A stretch of DNA of 28,484 nucleotides. It comes from a virus (taxonomy: Duplodnaviria; Heunggongvirae; Uroviricota; Caudoviricetes). Made by a program: the position numbers and the translations under genes. Below the pieces are notes generated by a model. That model was given only the letters and a program-made list of their open reading frames with translations, made no database searches and was not told the origin of the DNA. The stretch's first letter is position 1; the number at the start of each line of letters is the position of its first letter. The stretch is taken from the IMG/VR virus record IMGVR_UViG_3300009614_000107. The stretch is one strand, 5' to 3'. Below are positions 1 to 25,674 of this stretch, piece after piece.

Positions 1-320
1 TGGGTTTTCTTGACCTCTTCCTCATCCTTGATTCTATAGGAGATTAGACCAGATTTCTTAGATGGTGCTGGCTGTTGGATTGCATCCTTCTTACCTTCCA
101 AAAGCTGTTGTTTCTGGAACTCGAAGAACTCCTTCTTCAGTCTCAACTCTTCCTGTTGAGTCTTGAGTTTTTCCATCTCGATATCGGCCATTGTTTTCTT
201 CACGTGGCGATCTGTTGCCATATCAGCGTGTTTGGCATCAAAGTTTGTGAAGAAGTAATAAATTGCTCCTATGAAAACAATTATGAGAATTGAGCCTACT
301 GCTGTGAGTGAACTGTCCAA
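1..320 (-). CDS. Membrane-anchored coiled-coil protein (3' partial)
   Basis: Manual translation from TTG at 320: MDSSLTAVGSILIIVFIGAIYYFF...EMEKLKTQQEELRLKKEF..., open to the window edge; TATA (tttataaa) at 351-358. Confidence 0.7.
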   Translation of the reverse strand, partial: MDSSLTAVGSILIIVFIGAIYYFFTNFDAKHADMATDRHVKKTMADIEMEKLKTQQEELRLKKEFFEFQKQQLLEGKKDAIQQPAPSKKSGLISYRIKDEEEVKKT

Positions 321-369
321 GACAAGTCAGTAGGAGTATAAGTGTGTTGATTTATAAAACTTATCTATA

Positions 370-1341
370 TCACTGCTGTTGGAGTGGAATTATTGTCTCA
401 AAACGCCTCATTGTATTTCGGATTGAGACAGGTGTAACATTGAAAATGTAGCCAACATCATCCTGTGTGATATTGGTGTTCTGATTGCGGTGTAAGTAAA
501 ATGATGCTGCTGAGACAACAAATGGATTCTTGCCAATCATTTCCCTTTTGACTGCTTCGAGCTTAGTGAAGTCTATGGACTTAGACATAATGTCACGTAT
601 TTCGTCTTGTGGGATTTTCTTCTCTTCTGCATACTTGAGAAGTGCATCCTTCTTAGATGTGATTACCATCTCACACGTGATTTTGCAGGATTGAACCCCA
701 GCTTCCTTGGCATCCTTGACAGCATCGTAGAGGCATCTAATCTGATCGTGTCCATCGACTTTGCTGTATCGAGTATAAACATCTTTGAACTGGAGTGGTG
801 TTTCTGAGTTTGCTGGACACTTAGAGAGCAGATAGATTAGGGCAGCTATGGTAACATGGTATGCTCTTCCACGGAAGTTGGCAAGACCGATCTTCTCACC
901 AATCTCGTGCTTTAGGAACATCTTGTCCGACTCTGAGAAGTCATAGCATATTATATCAACAACATTTGAGATGTTGTCTGTCACGTGCCTAATTCGCTTG
1001 CGCTCTCTGCTCTTTTGGCTGTACTTAGGAAGCCTTGCTTTTTGCCTATCTCTGGTTTCTGTAAGCATTCTTTCTCTAGTTGCACGAAGTTCATCGTATC
1101 GATCAAGAATTGTCTGTCGCATTCCATCTTCAAGTTCTATGATGCACTTACCATTTATGAAATGGATTTTGATGCCTGGAATCTTGTTTACTGCTGTCCT
1201 TCGATGAAGTGTCTTGGACATATATTCTGGATCGTTGCAAACGACCTCATTCATTTTCTTGTTACCACGTACAAACTTTAAGATAATCTCGTCACGTGGT
1301 GTAATTCTCGGTGGTACTACTCCTTTTGGCATATTAGTCAA
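370..1341 (-). CDS. Transcription factor B (TFB/TFIIB)-like protein, two cyclin repeats, no N-terminal Zn ribbon
   Basis: FRGRAYHVTIAALIYLLSK resembles TFB repeat 1 (RGRS...AA.LY); GKNPFVVSAASFY...ITQDDVGYIFNVTPVSIRN resembles repeat 2 and its HTH (GK.P...AAA.Y...TQ.EVA....VTEVTIRN). Confidence 0.8.
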   Translation of the reverse strand: MTNMPKGVVPPRITPRDEIILKFVRGNKKMNEVVCNDPEYMSKTLHRRTAVNKIPGIKIHFINGKCIIELEDGMRQTILDRYDELRATRERMLTETRDRQKARLPKYSQKSRERKRIRHVTDNISNVVDIICYDFSESDKMFLKHEIGEKIGLANFRGRAYHVTIAALIYLLSKCPANSETPLQFKDVYTRYSKVDGHDQIRCLYDAVKDAKEAGVQSCKITCEMVITSKKDALLKYAEEKKIPQDEIRDIMSKSIDFTKLEAVKREMIGKNPFVVSAASFYLHRNQNTNITQDDVGYIFNVTPVSIRNTMRRFETIIPLQQQ

Positions 1342-1379
1342 AAGGAAGTACTACAAAATTAGCTTATAAATATTGTGAA

Positions 1380-2270
1380 TTATTGTTTCTTACTAGTGGT
1401 CTTTCCGAACTGTGTTTTGAGAGTGTCTTTCCAGTCCTTGTTGTCCTGTTCCTTTTTCTTTTTAATACGCTTGTCGATGAGTGTGGTCCAGTTGTACATT
1501 CCATCACGGACATACTTTGGAATCTTGTACTCTTCACGGTATATTTTTGGTGGACCACCATCTATCTCGATTACAGTAGCACCGATGCTTGGTGTGATGT
1601 TTGCTGATTTCTTTGCCATAAATGGAGTAGTATATTGCCAGCAACCATTTAGGATTCCCCAGACACCATTATCATCTTGGACGGAATAGAACCTGTGCTG
1701 GTGGCCACGAATGATAATATCTGGTCCATCAATTTTGTTTTTAGCAGCGTCCTTCTCAGACTGAAGCATTTCACGAATAATGTAGGAAGATGGATTGACA
1801 ATTGATACCGAGCCACCGTGTGTAGCCTGGATTTTTACAGTGCCTCTTCCATTGTTGTTGACATCAAACTCGAAGATATCTCCCATATATTGACCACCCA
1901 TACCTTCGAGAACCCTGCGATCTATGTTTGTCGCTTGACCAAGACCACCGTGATAGCCACTGCCATTCACACCAAAAACTGTGGTCTTGTTTGTAATCAT
2001 CTTGTCAAATAGTTCAATGACCATTTGGACTTGCTCATCTGTGTCTGTGACAAGTGCGTCTACACCTAAGTTTTTGGCTTGTGAACCGTCAGCTAAGTCA
2101 CCCATTGTTAAAATATAATCGGGTCCATTGTGTCGCTTACAAAGGTCAAGCCAGCATACGTGAATCCACTTTAAAAATTCGTTATTCCTGTCACGTGGCA
2201 CGGATGATGGTGATGCTAAACCATAGATTGAGCCAATATGTGTATCGCCAATGGCGATAATTTTTACCAA
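1380..2270 (-). CDS. Calcineurin-like metallophosphoesterase
   Basis: Motifs GDTHIG, MGDLADG, GSGYH (GNH variant), ATHG, RGHQH in canonical order. Confidence 0.85.
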   Translation of the reverse strand: MVKIIAIGDTHIGSIYGLASPSSVPRDRNNEFLKWIHVCWLDLCKRHNGPDYILTMGDLADGSQAKNLGVDALVTDTDEQVQMVIELFDKMITNKTTVFGVNGSGYHGGLGQATNIDRRVLEGMGGQYMGDIFEFDVNNNGRGTVKIQATHGGSVSIVNPSSYIIREMLQSEKDAAKNKIDGPDIIIRGHQHRFYSVQDDNGVWGILNGCWQYTTPFMAKKSANITPSIGATVIEIDGGPPKIYREEYKIPKYVRDGMYNWTTLIDKRIKKKKEQDNKDWKDTLKTQFGKTTSKKQ

Positions 2271-2327
2271 GAGAACATCCCTTTAGCTGGATAGTATTGG
2301 TAATTGGCTTATAAATATTTTCGGATT

Positions 2328-2921
2328 TTACACGAAAATCCACATTAAATATCCGATAAGTTTGGTTGCTAACCAGAGATAAGGCACATTGTAACGAATT
2401 GCTTCTGGGGACCAATCTAATGCTAAGAGTCCTTGAACTAGGAATGCTATGATAAAAATTGTGAGCAGTGCAATGAATGCTGTCACGTGGTTGAACTTCA
2501 TTTTATTTATCTTATTGTGAATGATTAAAAATATTATAGCTATAATAGTAAGAATTTGGAAGCCACTGATTAGATCATTAAAATTTAACCACCATTGCCA
2601 GGTGAAAATATACATATTTCCAATCTTGATTCCATTTGCAAAGTGCCAGATTACTTCATAAAAACAGACTGCACAGAATGAACGAATTGAGACTGCTTCA
2701 ATTCTAAGAATTACATTATTAAATTTACTGGTGAACCAGAGAAGTAGAACCATAATAGATAAAATGAAAAGTGTCATATTGTGGACTTTTGGAGCTCCAA
2801 CAAATAGGAAAGAAGTCTGCTCTATTGCCCAAGGATCTTTGGCTAGTACTACTGCCTGTTCAACAATGAATGGTATTAATAGGATTAGAAGAAACCAGCC
2901 AATGATTTTGTTGGGATTCAC
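2328..2921 (-). CDS. Multi-pass membrane protein
   Basis: 197 aa with about 6 hydrophobic segments; TATA-like tttataa at 2944-2950. Confidence 0.7.
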   Translation of the reverse strand: MNPNKIIGWFLLILLIPFIVEQAVVLAKDPWAIEQTSFLFVGAPKVHNMTLFILSIMVLLLWFTSKFNNVILRIEAVSIRSFCAVCFYEVIWHFANGIKIGNMYIFTWQWWLNFNDLISGFQILTIIAIIFLIIHNKINKMKFNHVTAFIALLTIFIIAFLVQGLLALDWSPEAIRYNVPYLWLATKLIGYLMWIFV

Positions 2922-2959
2922 AATATATAAAGAAAGGGGTGCGTTTATAAGTGTTTGTG

Positions 2960-3105
2960 GCTTTACTGCACTTTACTTAACTGTACTTTACACCACTGTA
3001 CTCCACTGTACTGCACTATACTATTCTGCTTTGCTTTACTTTACTATACTTGACGTAACTTCACAGAACGATACTACACTCAACTTCACTAAACTTCTCT
3101 GCTTT
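2960..3105 (-). ncRNA. Two tandem 73-bp pentamer-repeat guide-like RNA units (putative VIPR-like guides A and B)
   Basis: Each unit on the minus strand is AAAGCAGA-(NN-AGT)x12-AAAGC (A 2960-3032, B 3033-3105). The array starts within the stop codon of the RAMP gene. Confidence 0.8.
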
Positions 3106-3670
3106 AAGACTTCTTTTTAACTGGCTCGAATTTGGCAACCTCAAACCTACCGTATTTTGGGCGATAAGTTCCGATGCCCTTCTCCTTGCCAGCTATCTCA
3201 AGAAGTTCCTTCAATGTTTCACCCTCTATCAAACTTTCGTCTGCTACTCTAAGGATGAAATCGAACTCCCAATCATTCCAAATTGGTCGAGCAATCGGTA
3301 CTCGGCCACGAGTTGCAGGAATTACTCCAAGACGAACATCCGTCTGGAAATCCTTCCCATTTTTGAACGGGATCTCGATTGGGAGAACTACAACGTTGGT
3401 TTTCATCATATCCTTGTAGGTTTTCTTTCCTCTGCCTGGGATAGTTTTGGAACTGCCAACATTGATCAGTGCGCCTTCGATATGATCTGAAGGCTGGTAA
3501 ATATCTCCTTTTACATTTTTATAGAGGCACTTTTGAACCTCTTCTGCTGGGTCAAAAACAGAACCACGAACCTTCTTTTTTGTGATGCTTAAAGCATCAA
3601 GAGGGTATCGGTTGTGCATAAGGGGAACGACTCCCCTTATCTTTACTGCATAGTCTAACAAATTATACAC
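3104..3670 (-). CDS. Stand-alone RAMP/Cas7-like protein (putative Vipr-like guide-binding effector)
   Basis: N-terminal strand VKIRGVVPLMH, central IYQPSDHIEGAL (cf. RAMP PYIPGSSLKGAL), C-terminal Gly-rich loop GIGTYRPKYGRF; flanked on both sides by pentamer arrays; no other cas genes in the window. Confidence 0.75.
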   Translation of the reverse strand: MYNLLDYAVKIRGVVPLMHNRYPLDALSITKKKVRGSVFDPAEEVQKCLYKNVKGDIYQPSDHIEGALINVGSSKTIPGRGKKTYKDMMKTNVVVLPIEIPFKNGKDFQTDVRLGVIPATRGRVPIARPIWNDWEFDFILRVADESLIEGETLKELLEIAGKEKGIGTYRPKYGRFEVAKFEPVKKKS

Positions 3671-3697
3671 CTATGTAGTGAGTACATAGATTTAGAA

Positions 3698-3709
3698 TTT
3701 ATAAATATT
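3698..3709 (-). promoter_or_regulatory. AATATTTATAAA promoter of the RAMP gene and guide A/B transcript
   Basis: Exact motif 28 nt upstream of the GTG start. Confidence 0.75.
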
Positions 3710-3720
3710 AGCGAAAATTT

Positions 3721-3822
3721 GGTGGCTTCAAGTTTTGTTCAGCCACCCTTTACTTAACTTTACTTTACAGGACTTTACTCTACTCGACATTACTTAACAG
3801 CACATTACTATACTTGAGCAAG
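3721..3822 (-). ncRNA. Stand-alone pentamer-repeat guide-like RNA C with own promoter and 3' hairpin
   Basis: Minus strand TTGCT-(NN-WGT)x13 (pentamers 3752-3816)-AAAGG, then stem GGTGGCT/AGCCACC (3721-3727 and 3741-3747); promoter AATATTTATAAA at 3844-3855. 5' end estimated. Confidence 0.8.
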
Positions 3823-3843
3823 ATATGTTTTTCTTTTAACTTG

Positions 3844-3855
3844 TTTATAAATATT
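3844..3855 (-). promoter_or_regulatory. AATATTTATAAA promoter of guide-like RNA C
   Basis: Same motif about 23 nt upstream of the TTGCT leader, with no ORF following. Confidence 0.75.
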
Positions 3856-3928
3856 ATGATTTAAAAACTAACTAAGATGGGCTTTGCTTGATTGTGGTTA
3901 CAGAAAAACTGGAACCTATAGCGTTAGG

Positions 3929-4015
3929 CTACTTTTTCGCCTTTCGCCTATTATACGACTTGACATGAACGACCTTATTTTTTTGGTGTCGTGTGTACGA
4001 TTTTACGTGTGGCAT
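3929..4015 (-). CDS. 28-aa basic peptide, putative virion DNA-binding protein (missed by ORF track)
   Basis: MPHVKSYTRHQKNKVVHVKSYNRRKAKK*; internal HVKSY repeat; same AGGAGGGTAG RBS (4023-4032) as the capsid-like genes. Confidence 0.75.
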   Translation of the reverse strand: MPHVKSYTRHQKNKVVHVKSYNRRKAKK

Positions 4016-4064
4016 TTATTTTCTACCCTCCTTTACTAGCTGTCAGTCTAAATTAGAAACTTGT

Positions 4065-4080
4065 GGGGGATTTCTCCCCC
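4065..4080 (-). terminator. GC-rich hairpin downstream of capsid-like gene
   Basis: GGGGGA-TTTC-TCCCCC inverted repeat; role as terminator or processing site is inferred. Confidence 0.35.
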
Positions 4081-4100
4081 CGTCAGGCTATCTTTCAAGA

Positions 4101-4307
4101 TTAAATCTTGTCAGATGACCTTGCAGCAACTGATATACCTACAAGTAAAGCTATAAGTACCAATATGCTGGCCATTACGTTGGCAGCCGATGTGAGGTTA
4201 GTTGAAGCAGCAGCCATAAATCCTAATGTAGCGATTAGAAGTACTACAGCTATAGCTACGACATATCCCAATATTGGTCGAGTTGTATCGAGCAGACCTT
4301 CTCCCAT
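4101..4307 (-). CDS. Putative major capsid protein of spindle-shaped virus type, copy 2
   Basis: 68 aa, two long hydrophobic helices joined by a short polar loop with an NLT sequon; RBS AGGAGGGTAG at 4315-4324. Confidence 0.65.
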   Translation of the reverse strand: MGEGLLDTTRPILGYVVAIAVVLLIATLGFMAAASTNLTSAANVMASILVLIALLVGISVAARSSDKI

Positions 4308-4410
4308 TTTTTAACTACCCTCCTAACGACTGTAAGGTGATGCGTTGTTGCCTCACCTGGGAACGATGTCTGGAGTTCTTCACTCCAGAGAGATTAATGG
4401 CTTGACAGGC

Positions 4411-4617
4411 TTAAACCTTGTCTGCGCTGCGTGCAGCGACAGAGATCCCTATGAGTAGGGCAATCAATACCAAGATGCTCGCCATTACGTTGGCAGCAGA
4501 GGTAAGGTTTGCACTTGTTGCAGCCATAAAGCCTAGGGTAGCGATTAGCAGTACCACGGCAATTGCCACAACATAACCCAATATGGGACGTGTAGTGTCA
4601 AGTAGACCTTCACCCAA
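4411..4617 (-). CDS. Putative major capsid protein of spindle-shaped virus type, copy 1
   Basis: 63/68 aa identical to 4101-4307; TTG start; RBS AGGAGGGTAG at 4625-4634; TTTATAT box near 4698-4704. Confidence 0.65.
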   Translation of the reverse strand: MGEGLLDTTRPILGYVVAIAVVLLIATLGFMAATSANLTSAANVMASILVLIALLIGISVAARSADKV

Positions 4618-4763
4618 AACTATTCTACCCTCCTAACAGGCTGAGATGATAGGGGCATCACTTTTGATAGCTCCAAGCGTAGAATATGCGCTTTGAAATA
4701 TAAACTTATCCACTTTGATTCGAGCTGATCTCGTTTCTAAATGCTCACACTATAAAAAAAGAG

Positions 4764-4886
4764 CTAATTCTTACGATTAACAACATCAGCAAATCTCTGT
4801 CGATGTGCTCCCAATAGTTGTGAGCAGGGATACTTGTTACACTTCTGTTTCTTACAGTACTCTCCATAGAAATCCGATGAGGACAT
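4764..4886 (-). CDS. Small hypothetical protein (40 aa)
   Basis: Manual ORF MSSSDFYGEYCKKQKCNKYPC..., starts right after the stop of the upstream ORF. Confidence 0.4.
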   Translation of the reverse strand: MSSSDFYGEYCKKQKCNKYPCSQLLGAHRQRFADVVNRKN

Positions 4887-4887
4887 A

Positions 4888-5058
4888 TTACACTTCATCT
4901 CGTTCAACCTTCTTAGCAACTGTTTTCTGACCGTCTACATTCTTGGCGTGTTTTCTCCAGCACTCCATACAACATTCACCAACATCTGGAATGTAGATTG
5001 AAAAAACATTTAGTGGTTTATGGCATTGAGCACATTCATTCTTCGTCTTTTTCATCAT
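4888..5058 (-). CDS. Small Zn-finger-like protein (56 aa)
   Basis: Manual ORF MMKKTKNECAQCHKP...CCMECWRKH; two CxxC motifs. Confidence 0.6.
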   Translation of the reverse strand: MMKKTKNECAQCHKPLNVFSIYIPDVGECCMECWRKHAKNVDGQKTVAKKVERDEV

Positions 5059-5248
5059 CTTCTATTACACCGTATTCTTTTGCTATTGGACACTTACTAC
5101 AGTCTGCTTCTGGTGCTAAAACATTGCCCAATCTATCCCAAAATGGGACACATTCACAGGGATACCTTGAATTATCAAATTTTAATGAACAGATTGGGGT
5201 CATCCACTTGAACTCATCTTTTTTTACATTGCTATGTTTTCGAACCAA
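5036..5248 (-). CDS. Small Cys-rich hypothetical protein
   Basis: ORF track; tiles with neighbours. Confidence 0.55.
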   Translation of the reverse strand: MVRKHSNVKKDEFKWMTPICSLKFDNSRYPCECVPFWDRLGNVLAPEADCSKCPIAKEYGVIEDDEKDEE

Positions 5249-5253
5249 GTGTG

Positions 5254-5541
5254 TTACTCCCTATAATCATCATATATCTCTAGGCTATTATCTTTGGCAT
5301 TAACTATGATTTCTCCGAACTTTTTGGAGAGTTCAAGCAACTCCTGGAGATTACGAATCTCGATGTAGAGTTCCCACCAGTACATTTTCTCTCTTATACC
5401 TTCGTTATTGAGTATTAAATCTGACCTTCCATCATTGTCAATGAATACATAAAATCCATTGTATTGTGAGAGATCCCAGTCTGGTTTTATCGGGGACCAC
5501 GTTCCACCCCAACTTGACGTTCTATAAATTCTGAATTTCAT
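5254..5541 (-). CDS. Hypothetical viral protein
   Basis: ORF track; ends ...LEIYDDYRE; tiles with neighbours. Confidence 0.7.
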   Translation of the reverse strand: MKFRIYRTSSWGGTWSPIKPDWDLSQYNGFYVFIDNDGRSDLILNNEGIREKMYWWELYIEIRNLQELLELSKKFGEIIVNAKDNSLEIYDDYRE

Positions 5542-5547
5542 TATGTA

Positions 5548-5841
5548 TCAATCCTTAGTTTGACCAAATGTCTTTTCTTTGTATTCTAATATATATTTGA
5601 GAAAGTCGGGTGTACCCTCACCAGCAATAACATATCGCCTCTCCCAACGGTTATCGTTGTCCTTGTTCTGCACCCAATTACCACGAATCATACCAAGGAT
5701 TTCTAACTCACCAAGTGCTTTAGCGATATGTTGTTTTGGCTGAGTGGGAAATTCTAATGCTAGTTTAGACAAAGTGAAGCCATTCTCCTTGTCTGTGTTA
5801 ATCTTCAAAAGAACATCATATTCAAACTTCATTATAATCAC
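5548..5841 (-). CDS. Winged-HTH-like protein
   Basis: TLSKLA...IAKALGELEILGMI followed by a beta-hairpin (RWERRYVI). Confidence 0.55.
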   Translation of the reverse strand: MIIMKFEYDVLLKINTDKENGFTLSKLALEFPTQPKQHIAKALGELEILGMIRGNWVQNKDNDNRWERRYVIAGEGTPDFLKYILEYKEKTFGQTKD

Positions 5842-6215
5842 CTATTAGATATCACCCAAGTCCCGTTTTCTGTGTTTATGTGGTAGTCGGGATCCCACAC
5901 GTATGCCACGTTGCTGTTTTCCCTGATTATGTAGAACGAGAGGTTGTAGTAGTACACTTTCCCATCGGAGAAGTGGGTGCGGAATTCACCAAGGGTTGCA
6001 ATCTTTACGGTGACTGTCGGTGCTTTAACGTAGGCATCGACTGCACCGAGTTCCTTGGAAAGGGACTTCATCGTTTCTACCCGTATGTCCCAGTACCTGT
6101 CCCAGTTCTCTTGGCTAGTCTTAAACTGGTAAGCGAAGAACACCACGACAGCGAATATGGCGCATATGGCTAGAATGGAGAATATGAACTTCGTGTTGTT
6201 TTCGTTTTTAGACAT
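5838..6215 (-). CDS. Membrane-anchored hypothetical protein
   Basis: N-terminal TM helix; NLS and NGT sequons. Confidence 0.7.
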   Translation of the reverse strand: MSKNENNTKFIFSILAICAIFAVVVFFAYQFKTSQENWDRYWDIRVETMKSLSKELGAVDAYVKAPTVTVKIATLGEFRTHFSDGKVYYYNLSFYIIRENSNVAYVWDPDYHINTENGTWVISNR

Positions 6216-6249
6216 CAGATCACCAGTCTACATATATCTTCAAAATTCA

Positions 6250-6516
6250 TTATGGACCACCATACTTCAAACTTTCGTAGAATGAATATGCTACATTTAT
6301 TGTTATAATTATAACAGCCACTAATATTAATCCCCAGAATGCAAAGTCCCAGAAACTTGGCATAACATTTGGTGGAACAGCATCTATATTAGATAAAAAT
6401 GCCTGTGGATACAGGTAAGCGTGAATGCTCATAATTCCAAGAATTACCAGCATAGCTAGAAGTGGCAGTGGATTTGGGGGCAAGTTGCCTCTGTGTTTGG
6501 TGATTTTAAATCTCAT
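6250..6516 (-). CDS. Two-TM membrane protein
   Basis: Two hydrophobic segments; ATGA overlap with upstream gene. Confidence 0.65.
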   Translation of the reverse strand: MRFKITKHRGNLPPNPLPLLAMLVILGIMSIHAYLYPQAFLSNIDAVPPNVMPSFWDFAFWGLILVAVIIITINVAYSFYESLKYGGP

Positions 6517-7199
6517 TTCTGGTCAACAACATTTAGCTTGACATAATCCCAATTCCAATAGGTGACATTGAATGTTGTGCCACCAAAACTGAACTCATAG
6601 TTCAATGGTAGCATAGCATTTGATGGAAGATCGTGTGTAAGTGTGAAAAATAGCCAGTTGCCTTTATTATCATTCAGATGAATGTCTTGACCAGTGTAAC
6701 TAAGTGTGATATCTTTATATTGTGTCTGTTCGAGTCCTCTGCCTAGAACTATGGTTGTAATCTCGACTGGTTGGATATCTGGGACTTTGACTACAATAAG
6801 GGCAACATAATCTGAGTTCCAGGCTCTAACCTTGAAAACGTATCCACAGAACGTGACGTTTGTAATGGGTGTTGAGACAGGATCGATTGGGTTACGTATT
6901 GCCTCATCGTGATCACCACAATATAGATACAGGTATTTTCCTTCATATTTCATATAGACGGTTCTGTATCGAACCATACCCATATCTCGACCAAGCATTA
7001 TGTCAGACTCTGTAACTATGTTCTGCCTTGAGGTGATTTCTGTGCTCTGTGGGGGAACAAGTTCCCATCCAGTGGAGAACGAAACTGCTGGGATGTAGAC
7101 TTTTGTTGGATTGACTGGGAATTGTGTACCAAGTAAGAACGAACCAACCATAACTATGGAAATTCCAATAACCAGAAGGACACGTTCTGCGCCATTCAT
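6513..7199 (-). CDS. Membrane-anchored beta-rich surface protein with internal duplication
   Basis: N-terminal TM; repeated motif NVTFCGYVFKVRAWNSDYVALIVV / EFSFGGTTFNVTYWNWDYVKLNVV; promoter at 7229-7240. Confidence 0.7.
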   Translation of the reverse strand: MNGAERVLLVIGISIVMVGSFLLGTQFPVNPTKVYIPAVSFSTGWELVPPQSTEITSRQNIVTESDIMLGRDMGMVRYRTVYMKYEGKYLYLYCGDHDEAIRNPIDPVSTPITNVTFCGYVFKVRAWNSDYVALIVVKVPDIQPVEITTIVLGRGLEQTQYKDITLSYTGQDIHLNDNKGNWLFFTLTHDLPSNAMLPLNYEFSFGGTTFNVTYWNWDYVKLNVVDQK

Positions 7200-7244
7200 T
7201 CTTATCCCTGAATTAATAGGTGCGATTATTTATAAATATTCTGA

Positions 7245-7472
7245 TTAAGGACGTTTTGGAATCTCCTTCCCTGTGATTATGTAGTTTATCAACTCTGCCT
7301 TGTCTCTGGCCGTAGTGAGTTGAAATACATAACCTAAATCCATAGAGAATGGAAGTTCATCCATTTCTCTTACAAGTTCGTTGAACATAAACTCTGCTCT
7401 TTGGACAATTTGATCCTTCGAGCCATAGTTGCTTTTTACCATCTTTTCTGCAAATGCTTGTTTGCTTTTCAT
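7245..7472 (-). CDS. Hypothetical protein
   Basis: ORF track; abuts upstream gene. Confidence 0.65.
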   Translation of the reverse strand: MKSKQAFAEKMVKSNYGSKDQIVQRAEFMFNELVREMDELPFSMDLGYVFQLTTARDKAELINYIITGKEIPKRP

Positions 7473-7775
7473 TTAAACCACCTGTTTTTTCTTCCTTTGT
7501 TCTTGTGTAAGTCTCTTGCAAAAGTTTACGATATCTGTAAGGCAATCTTCTTCAAACCAAATATCACTGAGTATTCTCATCCTCTCTCCATCTGCTTTTG
7601 CTGTAGACCTGAAAGCATATTTTCTCCATTGTGGGAACCAAGAAATTACACCCAACCAATCATTTGTTTGTGTGTTGGTTACGTGCCATACCTGAGTTTT
7701 TGGCTTATCTTCTTTTGGATCACGCCAGAAGTAAACCCATTTTCCATCATATCTATATTCAAATTTATTTTCCAA
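7473..7775 (-). CDS. Hypothetical protein
   Basis: ORF 7473-7823; likely start is TTG at 7775, just after the upstream stop, with a GAGG RBS. Confidence 0.6.
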   Translation of the reverse strand: MENKFEYRYDGKWVYFWRDPKEDKPKTQVWHVTNTQTNDWLGVISWFPQWRKYAFRSTAKADGERMRILSDIWFEEDCLTDIVNFCKRLTQEQRKKKQVV

Positions 7776-7776
7776 T

Positions 7777-8448
7777 TTATGAAACCTCTTCTTTTTTATC
7801 TTCCAGTTCAGGTAGACGGTCAACAGATAGTTGATCCTTGAGTTTTTCTAAACCAAGAGCCTTGAGTCTTTCTTCGATTAGGTGTGAGACTTCGTTCTTT
7901 GCCTCAATGACTGTCTGATCCATCTGCTCTGTGAAACTCTTTTTAATGTATGGAATATTTGAAGCGATTTGCATCCTAATCATATCTATCTGTTGCAGGA
8001 TTTCTTCTCTATCTTTCTTGCCGATGTTTGGCTTTGCTAAGATCTCCTTGATTTTTGTGATGAACTCGTTTGTTTCAGATGCTGTATCCTCTAATTTTTT
8101 CTTGAATTCCTCATCAAACTGGACACGTTTGCTCTCAAATGGTGGTGCTTCAATATTTTCACCATTAAACCACTCGATTGTGCAGGGTACTCCAGTTGTG
8201 TTGAGCGAAGTGATTGCGTCTGCCCACTGTGAGGGTGACATATAGACACTTATTAGAGGTGGAGAGATTGGGAAATAATCATCGTGGTAGATATCTCTAT
8301 TCAGTATGGCTCTTGAAATTTCGAGTTTTATGAATGCTTGCTGCTGGATACTGCTACCGAACAGGTTTTGTTTGCCAGATGATGTGCCTCTGACGATATC
8401 TATCATACCGAATGATGGGTGTTTCTTTTGATTGGCAAACATTTTCAT
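7777..8448 (-). CDS. Conserved-looking viral hypothetical protein with C-terminal coiled coil
   Basis: 223 aa; HPSFGMI...LFGSSI...MSPSQWA...GVPCTI pattern that I recognise from phage hypothetical proteins. Confidence 0.75.
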   Translation of the reverse strand: MKMFANQKKHPSFGMIDIVRGTSSGKQNLFGSSIQQQAFIKLEISRAILNRDIYHDDYFPISPPLISVYMSPSQWADAITSLNTTGVPCTIEWFNGENIEAPPFESKRVQFDEEFKKKLEDTASETNEFITKIKEILAKPNIGKKDREEILQQIDMIRMQIASNIPYIKKSFTEQMDQTVIEAKNEVSHLIEERLKALGLEKLKDQLSVDRLPELEDKKEEVS

Positions 8449-20202: not shown

Positions 20203-21060
20203 ATGGGTGTTAGACAAGGCGGTTGGGCTCCACGTCAGCCTCTATTGAGTAAAGACGTTTTGAACGCATTGAAGGAAGATCTCATTCCATTGTGGGATGA
20301 GGGATTGAGTGCAGAAGAAATAGCAGACAGACTGGAGTTCGGTAAGTACCCATATGAAGATTTGAAAACTTATCACGTTTGGTACTATAGAAAACAATTT
20401 GGTTGTCAGAAAAGAAAGGGTGGAATTGAGAAAGGAAAGCCACGTTATAATGTCAAGCCTGATGTTATTGAACCACCAACCATTCAGGAAATTGAAGCCA
20501 AATTGAATGAAGTCTATCCACTATTGAAAAACAATGCTGGTGCAACTGACCTCAACACATTGATGGTTAGAGCATACATCTGGTTGCACAGATACAGTCC
20601 ACTGAGAAAAAGTGAGATATATGAGAGGGAACTAGGTGACTTCTACATTGATGAGAAAGCAAAAATACTAACACTTCAGAACTTTATCAGGAAAAAGAAA
20701 TTAAAGGGTAAAGCAAAAGAAGCACCTTTCCTTATCCCCTTGGATTATCCACACGTGATGGATGAAATTGTCACCTATCTTGTAAGAAGGATTGAACGTA
20801 CACAGGATTCGAGTGCCAAGGCATTTCCAATGTCGGGTTGGGTTGCCTGGAACAGAATGAAGAAAGCCTTCCCAGATATGTACCCACACTACTGGAGATT
20901 CAAATATATCACAGAGTCTGCCAGTGACCCAAACGTCCCTATTGAAGATTTACTAGCAGATACTGATCTAAATTTACTGACTTTGAGGCGTTATATGATG
21001 ACGGGTGAAAGACAACGTTTGGCTTCATTACAGAGAAGGAAACAGAGAGAACTTGTTTAA
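20203..21060 (+). CDS. Tyrosine recombinase/integrase with N-terminal HTH
   Basis: Catalytic pattern R (PLRKSEI), K, HxxR (PHYWR), Y (TLRRY); N-terminal GLSAEEIADRL; GGTGA RBS. Confidence 0.8.
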   Translation: MGVRQGGWAPRQPLLSKDVLNALKEDLIPLWDEGLSAEEIADRLEFGKYPYEDLKTYHVWYYRKQFGCQKRKGGIEKGKPRYNVKPDVIEPPTIQEIEAKLNEVYPLLKNNAGATDLNTLMVRAYIWLHRYSPLRKSEIYERELGDFYIDEKAKILTLQNFIRKKKLKGKAKEAPFLIPLDYPHVMDEIVTYLVRRIERTQDSSAKAFPMSGWVAWNRMKKAFPDMYPHYWRFKYITESASDPNVPIEDLLADTDLNLLTLRRYMMTGERQRLASLQRRKQRELV

Positions 21061-21140
21061 AGTTCTCTTGTTTCGCTTTAGTTCACACCACTGTACTATA
21101 CTATACTTAACTTTACTCGACTAAACAGTACTAAAGCAAT
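21039..21140 (-). ncRNA. Orphan pentamer-repeat guide-like RNA D with own promoter and 3' hairpin
   Basis: Minus strand TTGCT-(NN-AGT-type)x11 (21080-21134)-AAAGC; hairpin 21039-21053 / 21061-21074 spanning the recombinase stop; promoter AATATTTATAA at 21161-21171. Confidence 0.8.
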
Positions 21141-21551: not shown

Positions 21552-22907
21552 CTAAGTCTGTTTCTCAGAGGCGTAGACTGTGCCTTTGGCTGTTAGCTTC
21601 CATCTAGCGTGACCACCTTCGTCAACTTTTGAAATATAGCCTTCGTCTGTGTACTGGTTGAGCCTTCTGGCCAATGTTGCAGATGGAATTCCTGTCTTTG
21701 ACTGTAGATCATTGAATGAGTAGGAATGCTCCATTAGCCTTCCGAAGATCAGTGAATCTCCAATTCTTGGTCTTTTTACTGGTGGAACAATTGTGCTATC
21801 CATAGCCTCATTAACCCAACTTCTATTAATTGATTCATATCTTCGTCTTGAGTTCTGCTGTGTTCCGAGTGTGCCAAACATATCCCTGTAGATATCTGAT
21901 ATTGGGGATATTGGCTGACCCATCTCAGGTGCTGGATATTTCTCATCTCTTCGAGTGATCACGATGTGGATACAGTCTTTGTTGAGGTTTGTGTACTCAC
22001 AGGTGACTAACTTTGTGTTTATAGCGTGTGTTCCATCTTCTAGGTGGAAGATTGACTCGTTGAGTTCCTTCAGGAAGGAACGTATCTTGTCCTTGACCGC
22101 TTCCATATTGATTGTGAAGAGATCGGCTACAGCATCGTCTTGGTGGAAGATTTCCGAGAAGGATTTGACTACCTCTTTGCCCAGTGCTTTCCAGCTCTCT
22201 GGGGAATCAAAGAGTTCAAGTCCCTGTACACCGTCTACATTGATTATGGCTACACCTACCTGATCCTCATAGTCTGGGACTTTGGATAGGGCATCCATTA
22301 TTTTGTCACTGAAGTCTGTTCGGTTCTTTGAGTTGACATCTAGGGTTGCTGCAAGATCAGGATCCTGAGACATACTTGCGTGAGCAACAACAGAGTCAAA
22401 TCCACGATCCATTAGTCTGCTTGCTGACTTCATACTGTAGCTTTGAACCTCTCCCCAGACTCTATGCTGGTCACGAGATTGCAGGGCTGAGTAGACTTTC
22501 TGTGGTGCTAGGTCATTCATTATCTTGAATCCACCACCTGAGACTATGCCTCTGTGTGCGTGAACACACTTGACTTCGATGGGTTCACCGTTTGCCTGTG
22601 GAAGGATTATGACTCCTTGAACTACAGCACGATCCTGACCTGACATACCCTTGAACACTGTTCCTCCACGAATAAAGACTGAGGAACCAGATTTGTTGTC
22701 CACTTTGAGTTTGTCAATCTGACCTGTGTCCGTGATTTTTACTTTGTCCTTGTCCTCTGAGGCAAGGATATAACTGCGTTTTGGAGGTGCATTGCACCTA
22801 ACTGGGACTAATATGGTTAGCCCCTTTTCACCCAATCTCCAGGGATCGCCTAAGTAATAGGTTCCGTTCAGAGACTGGATGCTTTCGATTACTTTATTGA
22901 AGAGCAA
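21552..22907 (-). CDS. ARPP-1 (DUF6569)-like domain protein with C-terminal winged HTH
   Basis: LKVDNKS...VFIRGG.VFKG...QDR...IEVKCV...QHRVW...QVGVAI...LELFDSP matches my recollection of ARPP-1; C-terminal SFNDLQSKTGIPSATLARRL...GYI...WKLTAKG wHTH. Confidence 0.7.
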   Translation of the reverse strand: MLFNKVIESIQSLNGTYYLGDPWRLGEKGLTILVPVRCNAPPKRSYILASEDKDKVKITDTGQIDKLKVDNKSGSSVFIRGGTVFKGMSGQDRAVVQGVIILPQANGEPIEVKCVHAHRGIVSGGGFKIMNDLAPQKVYSALQSRDQHRVWGEVQSYSMKSASRLMDRGFDSVVAHASMSQDPDLAATLDVNSKNRTDFSDKIMDALSKVPDYEDQVGVAIINVDGVQGLELFDSPESWKALGKEVVKSFSEIFHQDDAVADLFTINMEAVKDKIRSFLKELNESIFHLEDGTHAINTKLVTCEYTNLNKDCIHIVITRRDEKYPAPEMGQPISPISDIYRDMFGTLGTQQNSRRRYESINRSWVNEAMDSTIVPPVKRPRIGDSLIFGRLMEHSYSFNDLQSKTGIPSATLARRLNQYTDEGYISKVDEGGHARWKLTAKGTVYASEKQT

Positions 22908-25589: not shown

Positions 25590-25674
25590 TGGCGGTGAGA
25601 GTGGGGATCGAACCCACGAACACCGAAGTGTACTGGTTTAGCGAACCAGCCCCTTACCGCTAGGGAATCTCACC
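25590..25674 (-). tRNA. tRNA-Ser(GCT) with encoded CCA
   Basis: Acceptor GGTGAGA/TCTCACC, discriminator G, CCA; anticodon stem CTGGT/ACCAG with loop TC-GCT-AA; long variable arm ACAC-TTCG-GTGT; T arm GTGGG-TTCGATC-CCCAC. Confidence 0.9.

Follow-up and report, generated by a model that had tools for sequence, protein, structure and literature searches.

The window, i.e., the whole stretch of 28,484 nucleotides analyzed here, lies on a 197-kb contig of a large archaeal virus from peat and wetland metagenomes. Among its genes are one for a recombinase, one resembling TFIIB, and a duplicated pair for 68-aa capsid-like proteins. The peat data sets containing this virus are JGI 3300018005, 3300018015, 3300018018, 3300038425, and 3300038450, and the runs SRR5824233, SRR7028477, and SRR13021855. 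A small gene, vipr, is accompanied by four short repetitive units, referred to here as guides A to D, and the features of the window are as follows.

1380..2270, minus strand: metallophosphoesterase gene, repeatedly adjoining vipr in relatives; candidate accessory gene
2960..3032, minus strand: guide A, second 73-bp unit of the array
3033..3105, minus strand: guide B, a vrRNA unit of 73 bp, composed of an AAAGC leader, 13 triplet+NN pentamers, and AGC
3105-3101, minus strand: AAAGC leader of guide B
3100-3036, minus strand: the 13 pentamers of guide B, each a constant triplet and a variable pair
3061..3062, minus strand: pair 8 (GA) of guide B, read as codon positions 1-2 of the phosphoacceptor Asp of a receiver (REC) domain
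3041..3042, minus strand: pair 12 (AA) of guide B, the apparent misfit, which agrees with Asn in a single Bathyarchaeia REC-PAS gene cluster
3035-3033, minus strand: terminal AGC of guide B
3104..3670, minus strand: Vipr protein, a stand-alone RAMP of 188 aa with a glycine-rich loop
~3748..3821, minus strand: guide C, a unit standing alone upstream of vipr, with a hairpin behind it
3927..3967, minus strand: 3' end of a small basic ORF, the virus's own allele imperfectly matched by guide C
4101..4617, minus strand: two 68-aa capsid-like genes, used as a host marker
20203..21060, plus strand: tyrosine-recombinase-like gene, used as a host marker
21078..21137, minus strand: guide D, a stand-alone unit behind the recombinase gene, followed by a hairpin
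25590-25674, minus strand: tRNA-Ser(GCT) found by ARAGORN, overlapping a spurious ORF

Over 90% of its length, the Vipr protein shared 29-30% identity with 124 phage proteins, most of them Felixounavirus-type, and the loci of these Felixounavirus-type homologues carry GGY/NN tracts and a second small gene. The top Foldseek matches of its AlphaFold model (pLDDT 85.5) were Csm/Cas7-type RAMPs (E 6.6e-8), and an invariant Gly cluster was located at 161-174. Many of the 34 close homologues were associated with arrays. The guide tracts in the window contain 13-14 pentamers with the consensus AGT, not GGY, and the same holds for the relatives. A repeat search of positions 1-8000 returned nothing besides the pentamer tracts and the duplicated capsid genes, with no CRISPR array at the locus, and none of the neighbors of vipr was assigned to a cas family. 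Judging from these computational features, namely, a RAMP fold of ~20 kDa, homology to Vipr, tracts of 9-16 pentamers, skipping of the wobble base, and no cas genes, ORF 3104-3670 and the pentamer arrays are classified as a VIPR system. In such systems, Vipr polymerizes on RNA, and the variable pairs bind the target DNA with every third base skipped; in most cases it is the wobble base that is left out, and transcription is repressed upon binding (bioRxiv 10.64898/2026.04.26.720920).

In most close relatives, a metallophosphoesterase-like gene (~285-300 aa) is either the immediate upstream neighbor of vipr or located two genes downstream, and this pairing was seen in nine loci (L005, L006, L008, L033, and L157-L161), including small integrated elements (L157); the gene is a candidate for a new accessory gene of VIPR. 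Short AGT/NN tracts were also observed 3' of the metallophosphoesterase gene in two related viruses (L005:7492-7521 and L158:8317-8356). Elsewhere on the 197-kb genome, far from vipr, there is a fifth AGT/NN tract of at least 9 units (L186:23384-23429, plus strand), and in an Aminicenantes chromosome, a distant Vipr homologue is surrounded by numerous AGC/NN tracts, located on both strands (L040:4225-6171). A diverged copy of the capsid-gene region (window 4356-4391) was found on a second contig of one peat run, which represents a related virus in the same sample as this one.

The guide B unit begins at the vipr stop codon, as the first unit of a two-unit array downstream of the gene. Its constant triplets are AGT nine times, CGT twice, and AGA and TGT once each, and its pairs are, in order, GA TT GA TG GT AT TC GA TA CA AT AA AA. 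The 12 pairs listed in a previous sequence-only reading of this DNA were all exact, and a 13th pair, AA (3037-3036), had been left out there. Because guides A, B, and C all end in AGT-AA-AG(C/G), and related arrays close with AA more often than with any other pair (11/39), this 13th pair is probably scaffold. The start of a guide is marked by an AGC-AGA junction, which is found in related loci as well. The unit was identical in four assembled loci, these assemblies being near-clonal, and no variant was found in the three sequencing runs that cover it. Its folding was no better than that of shuffled sequences (z -0.22), the hairpins being located instead 3' of guides C and D. The pairs TG, TC, TT, and CA, all of which occur in guide B, are rare among the guides of the related Vipr clade.

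The sister guides determined how the pairs of guide B should be read. Guide C matched the neighboring small basic ORF at 21/26 bases (81%). Guide D corresponds, in codon terms, to T-L-R-K-Y-M-M-T-G-E, a peptide present letter for letter in four recombinase homologues (P0038, P0039, P0045, and P0046, compared at the protein level only), and its exact pattern had zero matches in IMG/VR. The virus's own recombinase allele (20980-21008) has Arg in place of guide D's Lys and matches 8 of the 10 pairs; thus, guide D reads as a kin-directed guide placed just behind the gene that it spares. Against own and related genes, guides C and D both run in the coding sense and skip the wobble base. Because they obey this rule, reading the pairs of guide B as codon positions 1-2 follows the rule of the locus itself. 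The previous caution that such a reading was one choice among several no longer applies to the codon positions, and it still holds for the residue, as each pair remains degenerate. A skip of 1 nt gave 19 REC sites at >=18/24 bases for guide B, while skips of 0, 2, and 3 gave 0, 1, and 2, respectively, and were discarded for lack of REC enrichment. The opposite-strand reading of guide B, with no recognizable motif, was also discarded.

Guide A can be read in the same way as I/M-I/M-A-T-G-T-G-K-T-Y-K/N-A, which is a superfamily-2 helicase Walker A motif; the helicase class is presumably restriction-type or DUF3427-like. Zero matches to guide A were found in IMG/VR or in the 71 genomes of the Bathyarchaeia family that best matched guide B, and the single match with 2 mismatches among 256 Bathyarchaeia genomes, in a helicase Walker A motif, was not above chance.

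In codon terms, pairs 1-12 of guide B give (D/E)-F-D-C-V-I-S-D-Y-Q-M-N/K. In an alignment with receiver domains of solved structure, the Asp matched by pair 8 falls on the conserved Asp that closes strand beta-3, namely, the phosphoacceptor (Asp57 in CheY). The sequence-only reading had proposed that the guide spells an archaeal REC motif around this residue, and the database scans agreed with it: the best matches in all collections were archaeal REC genes, in frame and over the Asp. The exact 11-pair pattern had 0 matches, in REC genes or in any unrelated gene, in GTDB, IMG/VR, and JGI metagenomes; REC genes with 9-10 of the 11 pairs were plentiful. With pairs 2-11, there was no 10/10 REC match in GTDB, and the one match obtained was out of frame in a Clostridia gene, with ~1 expected by chance. 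The one match to pairs 1-9 in IMG/VR was likewise set aside as chance, a stop codon following directly in that frame.

When pair 4 and half of pair 5 were freed, 31 of 33 matches in GTDB were located in receiver domains, all in the sense direction and in frame; 28 of these 31 came from archaeal-labelled genomes, nine reached 10/11, and four were confirmed as PF00072. When the Cys pair was kept and pairs 2, 5, and 6 were loosened, all 25 matches were REC, and 24 of them were archaeal. In the case of Bathyarchaeia, 401 genomes were scanned with <=3 mismatches and with the reversed pattern as a control. Guide B gave 41 sites and the control 5; 36 of the 41 were in REC genes, the kind of enrichment that the sequence-only reading had proposed as a check, and the 5 non-REC sites equalled the control count. 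One family of 71 genomes, centered on isolate UBA8941 and taken by us to be GTDB family TCS64, accounted for 33 sites in 19 genomes (control 0), i.e., 0.46 matches per genome compared with ~0.012 for the control. By a Markov bound based on one control pattern, the chance of such a concentration is ~3% or less per family considered. A shuffled-order test on REC loci chosen by Pfam alone gave a p of about 0.013, and this test is the weaker one because such loci belong mostly to other REC subfamilies. Among 59 Bathyarchaeia REC sites, a set partly ascertained by the guide, the pair of guide B was the commonest at 10 of positions 1-11. In Methanoregulaceae, 35 sites were found in 28 of 121 genomes (control 0), mostly with Ala or Val at the Cys pair. 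The Bathyarchaeia counts, 41 sites compared with 5 for the control, place the REC reading of guide B far above chance. The REC orthologues were only 60-75% identical, and in a non-exhaustive comparison with the full-length guides of nine related loci, no other guide was conspicuous when scored at the REC site of REC loci.

Pair 12 had been regarded as a misfit, as AA does not encode the expected Pro. Pro is indeed the usual residue after Met, occurring in 44 of the 59 Bathyarchaeia REC sites, and AA was found at this position in 1 of the 59. Asn, Asp, Glu, Ser, Gly, Thr, Ala, and Arg also occur after Met, and the concern is weakened because some Bathyarchaeia REC genes carry Asn, Asp, Ser, Glu, or Gly there. 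A metagenome scan requiring AA at pair 12 returned three contigs, all with one REC-PAS gene, which reads S-Y-D-C-V-I-S-D-Y-Q-M-N and matches guide B perfectly over pairs 3-12 (21/24 bases overall). The relatives of this gene are named Bathyarchaeota PAS proteins, and its neighbors are cellular genes. These contigs come from samples other than that of the virus, and the gene is not claimed as the target; from its sequence, AA at pair 12 is compatible with the REC reading, although rare.

The sequence-only reading had also suggested that several paralogues might be addressed at once. Each genome of the family that matches best contains 14-25 REC genes; five REC genes in one genome (G080) scored 19/24 against guide B, and the best REC genes of two others (G224 and G266) scored 19-21/24. 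These scores correspond to about 79-88%, at or near the cut-off of 80% used for published target calls (VIPR paper, bioRxiv 10.64898/2026.04.26.720920). Similar levels are reached by the sister guides on alleles of their own virus that are presumably spared (81% for guide C), and the best guide B score anywhere, 21/24 (88%), is little above that of guide C against its own presumably spared allele (21/26). Accordingly, in terms of strength, the best REC site is no better than what sister guides reach against alleles they spare. Silencing of multiple genes by guide B would depend on mismatch tolerance and seems rather unlikely from these scores. Of the proposal that a viral guide acts on host two-component genes, possibly several paralogues, the parts concerning a VIPR guide and REC genes as its best match stand, while a target on the host chromosome and not on another mobile element, the identity of the host, and the action on multiple paralogues are tentative.

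Three observations point to Bathyarchaeia as the likely host class. The capsid-like protein of the virus shared 72% identity with that of a small integrated element on a Bathyarchaeia contig; the recombinase family was present in 13 of 401 Bathyarchaeia genomes (best E 8e-52), Bathyarchaeia being the only class searched; and the nearest Atlas cluster of the recombinase is archaeal, mostly Bathyarchaeota. The integrated element, inserted between methionine aminopeptidase and aminoacyl-tRNA synthetase-like genes, spans ~4 kb (L190:12927-16870, G126:C33) with capsid-like, integrase-like, and replication-type genes, and it is a candidate satellite of this virus family. The motif of guide B by itself does not name the host because it is also common in Methanoregulaceae (28/121). 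Moreover, the evidence on the host points to a different family than the best REC matches: the family with the capsid-bearing element showed weak REC matches (5 sites in 4 of 131 genomes, none with Cys), and a capsid homologue was found in 0 of the 71 genomes of the best-matching REC family. A DNA search of these 71 genomes for spacers or proviral remnants returned nothing credible. ARPP-1 homologues (31-35% identity, 7/71 genomes) were considered as a host link and rejected as too weak. A homologue of the ARPP-1 gene of the window (21552-22907) was observed next to, and divergent from, a REC-PAS gene with a 19/24 match to guide B (L119 / G140:C19:28770-30073), and this adjacency is probably due to chance.

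Taken with modest confidence, slightly above an even chance, the explanation we favor is that guide B directs a Vipr filament to a REC gene of the archaeal host, on the template strand over the phosphoacceptor codons, so that transcription would be blocked. The target would most likely be a REC-PAS(-kinase) or stand-alone REC gene on a Bathyarchaeia host chromosome. In the sequence itself, guide B is placed right after the vipr stop codon, in an array of two units. By homology to the VIPR of SUSP1, Vipr would polymerize on the RNA, hiding the constant triplets and presenting the pairs. According to the computational results, the pairs would read codon positions 1-2 in the coding sense with the wobble base skipped, and the RNA would then pair with the template strand over 12 codons centered on the phosphoacceptor Asp. 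Escape from guide B would need a non-synonymous change in the active site. Binding is expected to block transcription without cutting, and one signaling protein, perhaps a few paralogues, may be lowered during infection.

The same REC motif might instead be addressed on a competing mobile element, such as a large virus, a plasmid, or an integrated element, as part of the usual conflict between elements. Guides C and D find their matches in related elements, among homologues of genes that the virus itself carries; they aim at viral-type genes, and this counts against a host-gene target for guide B. The targets given in the main texts of the VIPR papers are almost all mobile elements, the absence of the exact target from the genome collections is as expected of a rare element, and the REC search covered 56 kb of the 197-kb genome. 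However, zero matches to the relaxed REC pattern were found in IMG/VR, no REC gene or motif match was found in these 56 kb of the virus, and the matching REC genes that were examined lie among cellular genes; we regard a mobile-element target as unlikely. As for a self-target, the best score in the same 56 kb was 17/24, and this option was rejected.

It is also improbable, in our judgment, that the REC reading is coincidental and that guide B is directed to a viral gene not yet sampled, whose degenerate peptide resembles this one. The absence of a perfect match, the degeneracy of every pair, the rarity of pair 12 in REC genes, and the number of conserved motifs that a random guide could approach all speak for coincidence. 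These have to be set against the match rate in one family relative to the control and its Markov bound, against the finding that all top GTDB matches fall in one domain family and one register, and against the presence of TG, TC, TT, and CA, pairs rarely used in the guides of this clade. Finally, guide B could have been copied from an abundant host REC motif without useful regulation, being outdated, accidental, or a sink that parks Vipr, and this is quite improbable: REC genes are multi-copy in Bathyarchaeia, a decoy role of multi-copy host targets has been published for REP-directed solo guides, and the matches are all imperfect, but guide B heads the array belonging to its cognate vipr, a place in which a decoy would be harmful to the carrier, it is wobble-aligned and centered on a catalytic Asp like the selected recombinase guide of SUSP1, and it is unchanged in all assemblies seen, though these are near-clonal.

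If the host REC gene is the target, a known system has been put to a new use, and VIPR would extend from conflict between viruses to control of the host. The wobble-skipping code could address a protein family through its motif, and, in an archaeal class that is abundant and uncultured, a two-component pathway would be marked as relevant to infection. A broader reading, in which the virus uses its VIPR array against host chromosomal regulators, with REC-PAS genes as the target of guide B and a helicase or restriction-type gene as that of guide A, is tentative, and we would give it less than an even chance; if it is true, VIPR would be a programmable tool for host takeover, acting on an unstudied Bathyarchaeia signaling pathway. 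Guides could be used for host prediction in the manner of CRISPR spacers, and the AGT-type archaeal Vipr is available for tests in E. coli.

Several known systems are comparable to this locus. Bathyarchaeia viruses carry CRISPR components, type IV-B in 'Fuxiviridae' and mini-arrays in 'Chiyouviridae' (PMC10848311), which share the host class, are likewise RNA-guided, and were proposed to act on the host or rival elements; they differ in having CRISPR repeats and contiguous spacers, and a host target was not identified for them. The spindle-shaped 'Huangdivirus' (PMC10848311) resembles the present virus in the type of its capsid gene, by description only. The matched genes share the architectures of archaeal REC-(PAS)n, REC-PAS-GAF, and REC-PAS-kinase proteins and their beta-3 Asp motif (PF00072; PMC5847659), and such REC-PAS proteins would be the predicted target, not a component of VIPR. 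The REP-directed solo vrRNAs (bioRxiv 10.64898/2026.10.15.759431) are alike in having a multi-copy target on the host chromosome. Unlike guide B, which lies in the array of its cognate vipr and reads a protein-coding phosphoacceptor motif, they have non-coding decoy targets and are encoded by satellites without vipr. In SUSP1, vrRNA4 against the F5 satellite recombinase (bioRxiv 10.64898/2026.10.15.759431) has a footprint on active-site codons, like guides B and D.

The natural VIPR targets given in the main texts of the published papers are satellites, prophages, other VIPR loci, and non-coding REP decoys (bioRxiv 10.64898/2026.04.26.720920,.720927; 10.64898/2026.10.15.759431). Those main texts contain no natural guide against a cellular signaling gene, and the term 'response regulator' is absent from the main text of the VIPR competition paper. 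Looser repeat consensuses, archaeal viruses included, and types with other array layouts have been described along with VIPR itself (bioRxiv 10.64898/2026.04.26.720920). The present locus shares with VIPR (bioRxiv 10.64898/2026.04.26.720920,.720927) the ~20-kDa RAMP, tracts of 9-16 units, one guide upstream and an array downstream, the wobble-aligned gapped code with a 1-nt skip, the viral location, and homology to Felixounavirus/SUSP1-type proteins. It differs in that the constant triplet is AGT instead of GGY, within the looser YNNNG class of that paper, and in that the units are packed at 73-bp intervals, are joined by AAAGC-AGA, and, in the case of guide B, show no evident structured tail. 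A further difference would be the archaeal host and the predicted target, a cellular signaling gene, which suggests that guides of this type may be aimed at the signaling genes of cells, beyond rival viruses.
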